Positions 1 to 3,000 of a stretch of 8,489 bases of DNA are shown here, one piece after another. A program made the position numbers. Location: the IMG/VR virus record IMGVR_UViG_2706794493_000018; one strand, 5' to 3'. This DNA is from a virus. Its lineage: Duplodnaviria > Heunggongvirae > Uroviricota > Caudoviricetes. Each line of letters begins with the position of its first letter. The stretch's first letter is position 1.

Positions 1-3000
1 TCCGGACCTGGCTGAGTTTGTGGCACTGATTTCGAAAAGCGGAGCCAATCCATTCGGTCTGACGGTGGATGCTGTGATGGAGGAGTACCGCCGCTGGCGC
101 AATGAGTCCTGGCGATACGACGGAAGTGATAAGTACCCGTGGTCTCAGCCTGTGCTGTATCACATTTGCCTCGAGATGCGTTCAAAGGGGATTGAGCGCC
201 AGATGACCGAAGGGGAATTAAAACGGCTTGCAGAACGGCAACTGACGAAATGGGCAAAGCATGTTAGTAACGGCCTGAGCGTTCCGCCAGTCCGGCGACA
301 ACTGGCGGCCCCCAAACGCCCGTCGGGGCCAACGCCAATTGAGTTGCTGAAACAGGAATATGAACGCCGGAAAGCGGCTGGTTTTGTTTGAGTTGAGAAG
401 TGATTTTTTACCGGGAGGAAATTTATGGAGACTGTTTTTGACGCACTGAAAGCGATGGGAAAAGCCACGTCGGTATAGCTGGCTGCGCGACTTGATATCA
501 GTCGTGAAGAAGTACTGAACGAGCTGTGGGAACTGAAAAAGGCTGGCTTCGTTGATAAAAGCGTATACACCTGGCGTGTGGCTGATAACAACGTTCAGCA
601 GGAACAGCCAGCGCCAGAAGAAACCACCACGGCAACAGAAGCGAAAATCTCAGAGTGCGATTTAACCGCGACGATTGAACAACGCGGACCACAAACGGCG
701 GATGAACTGGCTACGCTGTTCGGTACAACATCCCGCAAAGTTGCTTCAACGCTGGCAATGGCAATCAGCAAAGGTCGTCTGATTCGCGTAAACCAGAACG
801 GTAAAATTCGTTACTGCATACCAGGTGATAATTTACCAGCAGAGCCGAAAGTTGAATCGGTAGCGGAAACCGATGGTAAAGCCTTTCCTCAGCCAGCCGG
901 TGTTGCGTTACCGGTACAGAAAGATGCAACACAGGAAGATATTAAAACAGAAACTGTGGCGGACATTGTGCAGTCGCTGCCATCGTTTACTGCAACGCGA
1001 GAAGATGATTTGATTTTGCCATCGCTGCATATGGCAAATCGCGAACTGCGTAGGGCGAAGAATCATGTCCAGAAGTGGGAGCGAGTCTGCGCCGCGCTGC
1101 GGGAGCTGAACAAGCACCGGGATATGGTTGCCGGGATTTGTCGGAAGTCCGGGCAATGAGCGGATGGTGCAGGCCTGAAATCATGATACTAACAATGAAG
1201 GTAAAATGCATCGGCAGTCTGATTGGTCGTAGTGAGGCGGCGGTCAGGATGAAAGCCCAGGTTAAGGGAATAAGCCTGATTCTGCGGGGTGATTTTCACC
1301 AGTCAACAAAATATCCGTAGCGCGATAACGGTCAAAAATTATGGCGCTGACACTTTTGTGCCACTGGAGATGACTGTACCTAAGTTCAGGGGAGAAGAAC
1401 ACGTCCGGTGGGATGGTCGGGCCAGATTTAAAGGGCAGGTCATGGCTCCAGCCTGTACGCTGGCAATGGAGGCTGCCTGGCGGGAAATTGATATGGGAAC
1501 CACGCCACTCAGGGATTTACTGCCGGTCCAGAGAATAAATTCCTGTTACGGTTACACCACTGTGATCTTGCAAGTGCAGGAAAGTAGGTCTACACGGTAA
1601 CGCGAGTGCGTGTAACTTTTGATGTCATTCCCGTAGAAACACCGGACAAATTTTCGCTGACAGGTCATGCAGAAGGTATAAATCTGCAGATTATGGACAA
1701 TTACGGATATCCGGCAAGAGCCGGAAAAAGCATGCCGCCTCTAATTCTCAGTGGAAGATGGACTTGATTATACTCATTGCATTGTCAGAAATAGTTATCC
1801 ATTAAAGGCTGGCTATTCCAAACAGGATGTTGATTACAAAAATGTAATCAACATGTAAGGTTTATACTCTTCAATATGCGTATAATTTTCCTTATTTTGT
1901 TGACTTTAAATAACAAGCTATGCACGAGGTAAAGTCGGATAAGTTTATCTGGATGTAATATATATTATTTGTAGTGTTTATAACTTTATTTCATGATAAC
2001 CAATAAAAGGAGTTTTTTATGAGGAACATAATGGCAGGTTTTTTAATATTCCTGTCTTCTGCTGCTTATGCTGATATCAATCTGTATGGTCCTGGTGGCC
2101 CGCATACAGCCTTGCTTGATGCAGCCAAACTTTATGCCGAAAAAACAGGTATTATAGTGAACGTTCATTACGGCCCACAGAACAAATGGAATGAAGATGC
2201 CAAAAAAAATGCAGATATCTTGTTTGGCGCATCAGAACAATCTGCTCTGGCTATCATTCGGGACCATAAAGACAGCTTCAGTGAAAAAGATATTCAGCCT
2301 CTTTATCTGCGAAAAAGTATTTTACTGGTAAAGAAAGGTAATCCTAAAAATATCCGGAGTATTGACGACCTGACCAGACCTGGGATTGGCGTAATTGTTA
2401 ATGATGGTGGTGGTACCAGTAATACATCAGGCACTGGCGTCTGGGAAGATATTGCCGGACGTAAAGGGAATATAGAAACTGTCGCCGCAATCCGAAAAAA
2501 TATTATTTTATATGCGCCCAATAGCGGAACTGCACGTAAGGCTCTTGAGAATCAGCCTGGAGCAGATGTCTGGATAACCTGGGCTGACTGGGCAGCCAGT
2601 AATCCAGAAATTGGTGATGTCGTGGAAATAGCGCCAGACTACGTGATATGGCGTGATATGAACATTACAGTACGTCAGGATGCAAATGATGAAACCCGTC
2701 GATTTGCAGAATGGCTACAAACCGATGAAGCGGCGCCTGCATTCAAAAAATATGGCTGGACCAGGAAAGGCACTTGACATCCTCGTCCTTCAGGACGTGG
2801 ATTCTTTTTCCGGATGCCGCGCCAGCGGCATGTAGGGGCAGCTCACAAAACGGAAAAAATTGTACGCTAAGCCTCGCCAGGTGAACTGAATTCATTCCGA
2901 TATGGGAATTCCCATATCGGGCGAAAACGGTTTGCTGTAACGGCAGAGTTAAGTAGGATTGCTGCGGGTGCTTGAGGCTATCTGCCTCGGGCATGAACAC

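Follow-up and report, generated by a model that had tools for sequence, protein, structure and literature searches.

Probable nonsense inactivation of a YdaW/DUF1627 gene in the ompW-site lambdoid prophage of Escherichia coli O157:H7

The phage gene at positions 425-1159 of the DNA analysed here is very probably a young, lineage-specific nonsense pseudogene of the YdaW/DUF1627 family, and the amber codon within it is neither a recoding signal nor a sequencing error in this reading. The DNA (referred to throughout as the window) is a stretch of 8,489 nucleotides from a virus of the Caudoviricetes (IMG/VR record IMGVR_UViG_2706794493_000018); within 20-1320, every feature described below lies on its + strand. 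The stop, TAG at 476-478, is codon 18 of the frame and has replaced GAG (Glu18), the sense codon of close orthologues, which is one base away from a stop. When the 735-nt gene is compared with its copies in O55:H7 RM12579, in O157:H7 LSU61, and on an O145 replicon, position 476 is the sole difference, being T in the window and G in the others. Consequently, the stop arose by a single G-to-T transversion at 476. Several explanations of the stop had been offered in the first-pass annotation of this DNA, and it is the recent nonsense mutation, leaving a pseudogene, that this comparison with orthologous prophages bears out.

The reading frame and its ancestral codon

Translation of the gene would begin at ATG 425-427, and the strong ribosome-binding site that the first-pass annotation had attributed to this codon is indeed present: the Shine-Dalgarno sequence GGGAGGA at 413-419 pairs with the 3' end of 16S rRNA at -10.3 kcal/mol, with a spacing of 5-6. 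As had also been read, the frame from 425 to 1159 is interrupted by a single TAG after 17 codons. These 17 sense codons, from the ATG to position 475 (METVFDALKAMGKATSV), would all be translated from the authentic start, and the peptide that they specify matches residues 1-17 of the intact 244-aa orthologues exactly. The rest of the inactivated gene, at 479-1159, is recognizable from the sequence, from its Pfam match, and from a structural model, and it remains open for 226 codons to the TGA at 1157-1159. Thus, the authentic start at ATG 425 can yield a 17-residue peptide only.

The ancestral state of codon 18 can be read from several sets of relatives. In both O55:H7 RM12579 and O157:H7 LSU61, the orthologous prophage keeps the same gene order from the integrase to paa and encodes an intact 244-aa protein, WP_000450692.1. 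In six related loci, the annotated gene is intact, begins at the counterpart of ATG 425, and carries GAG at codon 18, and GAG is likewise present in further near-identical copies. At the protein level, an alignment of homologues, proposed earlier as a check on the residue at this position, gives a uniform answer: of the 120 cluster representatives nearest to the query (at least 84% identity), 118 carry Glu18 and the other two are N-terminally truncated, so that glutamate is found in 118 of the 118 close homologues in which the residue can be read. In the corresponding alignment, 118 of the 121 rows (the query row included) start at residue 1.

The two alleles are both widespread among complete E. 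coli genomes. A 63-mer centred on the TAG codon has an exact match in 293 independently assembled genomes, including that of Sakai, and among the matches listed, the genomes are either named as O157:H7 or carry no strain name. The corresponding GAG 63-mer is found exactly in 311 complete genomes, which include O55:H7, O145, O111, and O121 strains as well as LSU61. From these sequence comparisons, the TAG allele is judged to be fixed in a large clade and to have arisen after the split from O55:H7 and from LSU61, an early-branching O157:H7 strain. G476T consequently provides a clean single-base marker that separates typical O157:H7 (TAG) from O55:H7 and LSU61 (GAG).

The same TAG allele is also seen on a draft-genome contig (1148-1897), in a recombinant DUF1627 gene whose last ~60 codons, together with the downstream neighbour (DUF977), come from another prophage type. 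Given this recombinant copy, the TAG allele has been shuffled by prophage recombination.

The protein family and the segment that is lost

When codon 18 is read as sense, the product matches Pfam DUF1627 (PF07789) with an E value of 7.8e-93 (308.8 bits, against a cut-off of 28.1). The match extends over residues 84-236 (window 674-1132) and takes in positions 1-153 of the 155 in the profile. Furthermore, the product aligns end to end with thousands of homologues of 244-257 aa; given both the Pfam match and these alignments, the frame is not a chance ORF. It also matches PHROG 630 (phrog_630; function unassigned) at an E value of 2.5e-121. The family is that of YdaW of Rac-like and lambdoid prophages, and it is carried by inducible phages such as Shigella phage 75/02 Stx, POCJ13, Rac-SA53, and the O145 'PPompW' prophages.

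In an AlphaFold2 model derived from the homologue alignment (mean pLDDT 78.5), two winged helices are predicted, followed by a long helix. The first winged helix comprises residues 1-52, extending to about window position 580 (pLDDT 87-94), and Glu18 lies in its helix 2 (residues 16-23). In agreement with this, HTH_20 matches residues 4-44 (E 2.4e-5; 24.6 bits, just below the 27-bit cut-off), and several winged-helix families match residues 4-46, also just below their cut-offs. The stop had earlier been placed within a predicted helix-turn-helix region, and both the HTH_20 match and the modelled helix agree with that placement. After a short disordered spacer, the second winged helix is predicted at residues 77-131 (about window 653-817); a disordered acidic/proline-rich linker at residues about 139-177 and a C-terminal helix at residues 201-243 (about window 1025-1153; pLDDT 88-97) complete the model.

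Comparison of this model with known structures does not point to one activity. A Foldseek search against the PDB gave generic tandem winged-helix matches with low TM-scores (ScpB, ESCRT-II, the C-terminus of SelB, MarR/ArsR), and profile comparison with the PDB produced weak matches of winged helix 2 to Z-alpha, AspA, and ArsR. Since these matches are generic or weak, no specific function has been assigned from structure. In addition, an established function for DUF1627/YdaW was not found in the literature on the family. YdaW has been listed among uncharacterised predicted transcription factors, as MarR-like (PMC9308461), and in an overexpression screen, a Rac ydaW clone was counted among the blockers of the retron-Sen2 toxin RcaT (bioRxiv 10.1101/2020.06.22.160242). 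The model suggests that the intact product is a probable DNA-binding early phage protein.

The part of the protein that lies around and before the stop is also the part that the family conserves best. When 1.84 billion representatives were searched exhaustively with HMMER, 176 clusters only were returned, among which 56 full-length members with 21-66% identity could be compared as a distant set. Position 18 is Glu in 48 of these and Asp in 3, and hence acidic in 51 of the 56; nearly all of them start at residue 1. Residues 1-52 form the best-conserved block in this set, within which L34 and W50 are invariant. Neither a stop nor a gap pattern was seen at codon 18 in the 118 close and 56 distant full-length homologues. 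A stop at residue 18 of 244 thus removes a conserved and presumably essential block, residues 1-52, from the product. The codons for the N-terminal winged helix are still present in the window, but their frame is interrupted at codon 18; consequently, this copy is to be regarded as a disrupted, rather than an intact, member of the DUF1627 family.

It had been noted at the outset that the pseudogene reading would fall if all homologues began at the equivalent of position 578 and the segment upstream were unconserved. The alignments give the opposite result, in that the homologues have their start at the counterpart of 425 and are most conserved at the N-terminus. A gene family that begins at 578 was therefore rejected.

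Stop bypass, restart, and the database models

The frame downstream of the stop is entered in public databases as a gene. RefSeq/PGAP records a 226-aa CDS at 479-1159 that begins with the CTG directly after the amber (WP_077744273.1), and the Sakai re-annotation records a 193-aa product, ECs_5720, that begins with GTG 578; neither carries a pseudogene flag. In a public protein collection, the 226-aa, the 193-aa, and the intact 244-aa models are each represented by ~1000 contigs. These three models reflect automatic start-codon choice and not evidence of translation. Users of the databases should consequently treat the 226-aa and 193-aa records as fragments of the 244-aa protein.

The existence of such models in the public databases, in RefSeq, and in the Sakai annotation might be taken to suggest that the gene still functions, with ribosomes reinitiating at CUG 479 or GUG 578 after the UAG at 476-478 to produce a protein of 226 or 193 aa. 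With winged helix 2 and the C-terminal helix retained, this protein would either have some activity left or interfere with the intact paralogues from other prophages. E. coli offers documented cases of restart after an early nonsense codon (lacI, T4 rIIB). In addition, the downstream frame is intact, with 0 further substitutions, which is compatible also with selection that still acts on the downstream part, and the C-terminal helix (residues 201-243) could oligomerise with paralogues such as ECs_1946. However, neither candidate start has a Shine-Dalgarno sequence: the pairing upstream of CTG 479 amounts to -3.0 kcal/mol and that upstream of GTG 578 to -1.5 kcal/mol, as compared with -10.3 kcal/mol for ATG 425. 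CUG is also a very poor initiator in E. coli. The GTG at 578-580, which is the first canonical in-frame start 3' of the TAG and which has no ribosome-binding site, lies 100 nt beyond the stop, and the ORF that it opens (578-1159, 193 aa) would give a product without the whole of winged helix 1. Reinitiation at this GTG, suggested in the first-pass annotation, is thus possible but unsupported. Moreover, the database models, being automatic choices, are no sign of expression, the missing further decay is expected anyway in a lineage as recent as O157:H7, and the segment that a restart would leave out is the most conserved domain of the family. Efficient restart is therefore unlikely at either codon as judged from their sequence context, and it is improbable that the gene remains functional in this way. 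A related idea is that a low-level restart product from CUG 479 or GUG 578, devoid of winged helix 1 but possibly still equipped with the C-terminal oligomerisation helix, acts as a dominant-negative or modulating partner of intact YdaW paralogues from other O157:H7 prophages, such as ECs_1946 of Sp10. This is very improbable; if true, it would add a regulatory interaction between prophages that has become fixed in typical O157:H7.

Two other explanations leave the gene formally intact. In one, the gene is suppressor-dependent or uses programmed read-through, so that the UAG is decoded as sense and full-length protein is made in a regulated way. The base after the stop is C, and a stop followed by C is one of the weaker contexts for termination by RF1, which makes trace read-through plausible; furthermore, the prophage has tRNA genes of its own. 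However, the tRNAs that ARAGORN predicts in the window are Met/Ile(CAT), Arg(TCG), and Arg(TCT), and no suppressor tRNA with a CUA anticodon was found within the window; the tRNA genes of Sakai Sp9 are ileZ and argO only. The position is a sense codon in every homologue examined and GAG in all close relatives, so the stop itself is not a conserved feature. TAG also serves as an ordinary terminator in this DNA, where it ends the ORFs at 1156-1320 and 5349-5729, and for this reason, together with the GAG of the homologues, an alternative genetic code or TAG recoding was rejected. The classical amber suppressors of E. coli place Gln, Tyr, Ser, or Leu at the codon, and none of them is known to place Glu there. 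The suppressor-dependent gene considered in the first-pass annotation is accordingly a most improbable account of the stop. The other explanation traces the stop to an error made in sequencing or assembling the source record. The window is in fact a mosaic that has no full-length match in complete genomes, and trouble with the assembly is possible in its right-hand part. However, the first 3120 bases, among which the gene lies, are 100% identical to O157:H7 genomes, and the TAG 63-mer recurs without change in complete genomes produced by many laboratories and on many platforms. An error at position 476, likewise proposed at the start, is therefore rejected. The nonsense pseudogene thus stands as the preferred reading of this locus.

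Prophage setting, consequences, and comparison with known systems

Positions 1-3120 of the window are 100% identical in O157:H7 strain TR01 and in Sakai, and positions 1-1400 are 100% identical in many E. coli O157:H7 chromosomes. In TR01 and Sakai, this region belongs to a lambdoid prophage integrated beside ompW, which the Sakai record labels 'prophage Sp9'; Sakai Sp9 carries the TAG allele, and window 425-1159 corresponds there to 1766762-1767496. The gene order is cro, ydaT, an O-like gene, the gene for replication protein P, and then the DUF1627 gene, which is followed on its 3' side by a 54-codon ORF, a fimbrial pseudogene, and the adhesin gene paa. Within the window, the 3' part of gene P (a helicase loader of the lambda-P type, from the ORF and from annotation in identical O157:H7 DNA) occupies 20-391. 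Only 33 nt separate its end from the start codon of the DUF1627 gene, and the two belong to the same early-right operon. No promoter-like site was found between gene P and 425, and a scan for an internal promoter or terminator around the DUF1627 gene gave a result within shuffle expectation. The position of the gene is that of its family, whose members lie directly downstream of O/P or DnaC-like genes: it is directly 3' of replication protein P in the window, in TR01, and in eight related loci, and it is 3' of ydaV/DnaC-type genes in one related locus and in Sakai Sp10. O157:H7 genomes each contain 5-8 places that match the DUF1627 gene region, and the intact paralogue in Sakai Sp10, ECs_1946, encodes 253 aa, is 90% identical, and has Glu18; the Sp9 copy differs from it around residues 62-75 and at the C-terminus, among other places.

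Other genes of this prophage show damage of their own. The fimbrial-protein pseudogene at window 1325-1858, between the 54-codon ORF and paa, is frameshifted and has several internal stops; since the O55:H7, LSU61, and O145 copies are broken already, this damage predates the nonsense mutation in the DUF1627 gene. A ydaT-family gene of the same prophage, upstream of the window, is frameshifted in TR01 (TR01 locus 6375-6925) and intact in Sakai (ECs_1767), LSU61, and O55:H7. Given these intact copies, the ydaT frameshift represents a separate, TR01-specific decay event, and the intact ydaT of Sakai led to the rejection of the frameshift as part of a lineage-wide decay.

The right-hand part of the window has a different affinity. 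Against 5426 complete E. coli genomes, the window is a mosaic with a junction near 3045-3122: positions 1-3120 correspond to the ompW-site Sp9, and positions 3045-8489 best match another lambdoid prophage (98.4%, 99% cover), which lies at a different chromosomal site in O55:H7 strains. The Sp9-like and right-hand parts are adjacent in none of the 5426 genomes, and the mosaic either reflects a prophage that had recombined in the source strain or was created during assembly, as a chimera across prophage repeats. A full-length match to the sok antisense RNA (RF01794, 103.9 bits) is found at window 2966-3115. About 158 bp that come directly after this stretch in TR01 and Sakai, comprising most of hokD (TR01 locus 11113-11268), are missing at the mosaic junction (window 2966-3122), so that the hok/sok module in the window appears from its sequence to lack most of the toxin gene. 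Farther to the right, three phage tRNA genes are found at 8062-8311, with anticodon CAT (ileZ-type, called Met by ARAGORN), Arg-TCG, and Arg-TCT, and they are followed at 8388-8489 by a match to the sRNA family STnc100 that is only partial, being cut by the window end. Lambdoid phages of the Stx type typically have such a tRNA cluster with STnc100 downstream of their late antiterminator.

Taken together, the results on the DUF1627 gene suggest the following course of events. In this model, the gene would share the early-right operon of the ompW-site lambdoid prophage with cro, ydaT, O, and P and be transcribed along with them. In an ancestor of typical O157:H7, after O55:H7 and LSU61 had split off, a G-to-T change would have converted Glu18 from GAG to TAG. 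Ribosomes that start at ATG 425 would then release a peptide of 17 residues, and the other 226 codons would remain essentially untranslated, save for what trace read-through or a weak restart might yield; a product of such a restart would be without part or all of the most conserved domain. The function of the protein would accordingly be lost in the window copy. The zero further substitutions in the dead frame fit the recent origin of the O157:H7 lineage.

The mutation may also affect the next gene. The 54-codon ORF at 1156-1320, which is annotated in identical DNA as the hypothetical protein WP_001505071.1, begins with an ATG that overlaps the stop codon of the DUF1627 gene (ATGA, 1156-1159), and its Shine-Dalgarno sequence is weak (-3.6 kcal/mol). 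This arrangement suggests that translation of the ORF is probably coupled to that of the DUF1627 frame; with the amber codon in place, the coupling would probably be lost and translation of the ORF reduced. A sliding C/G scan of the untranslated stretch revealed no clear Rho-utilisation region, the maximum ratio being only ~1.17, and Rho-dependent polarity is accordingly not proposed.

Sp9 itself is a defective lambdoid prophage with several lesions that is still excised and packaged in Sakai (PMC2669165). Its reported defects include a repressor without a peptidase domain and lesions in recombination, portal, and head genes (Asadulghani et al. 2009, PMC2669165). The loss of the DUF1627 protein was probably near-neutral, because Sp9 was already defective yet is excised and packaged, because the Sp10 paralogue is intact, and because each genome has 5-8 matching places.

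The window copy shares with the YdaW/DUF1627 family, as represented by Rac ydaW of K-12 and ECs_1946 of Sp10, both its family membership and its position 3' of the replication genes, and tandem winged helices with a C-terminal helix are predicted in both. The intact members have 244-257 aa, whereas the window copy has an amber codon at the conserved Glu18. With the amber-recoded crAss-like and Lak phages, or with the read-through of Q-beta A1, the likeness is limited to the presence of an in-frame stop in a phage gene. In those systems, the stops are many or conserved, and they are accompanied by a suppressor tRNA or a read-through context; in contrast, the window gene has one stop, which is absent from all of its relatives examined, no suppressor tRNA is found in the window, and TAG is used as a terminator nearby. 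The kind of event is instead a familiar one, the ordinary decay of a prophage gene by nonsense mutation, although a description of the E18* change itself was not found in the literature searched. The closest comparison is with the decay of the O157:H7 Sakai prophage pool (PMC2669165), where the table of defects covers the core functions of regulation, integration, replication, recombination, morphogenesis, packaging, and lysis, and no mention of the DUF1627 accessory gene was found there. Relative to this pool, E18* represents one more lesion in the defective Sp9, and with an intact paralogue in the same genome, its biological weight is small.
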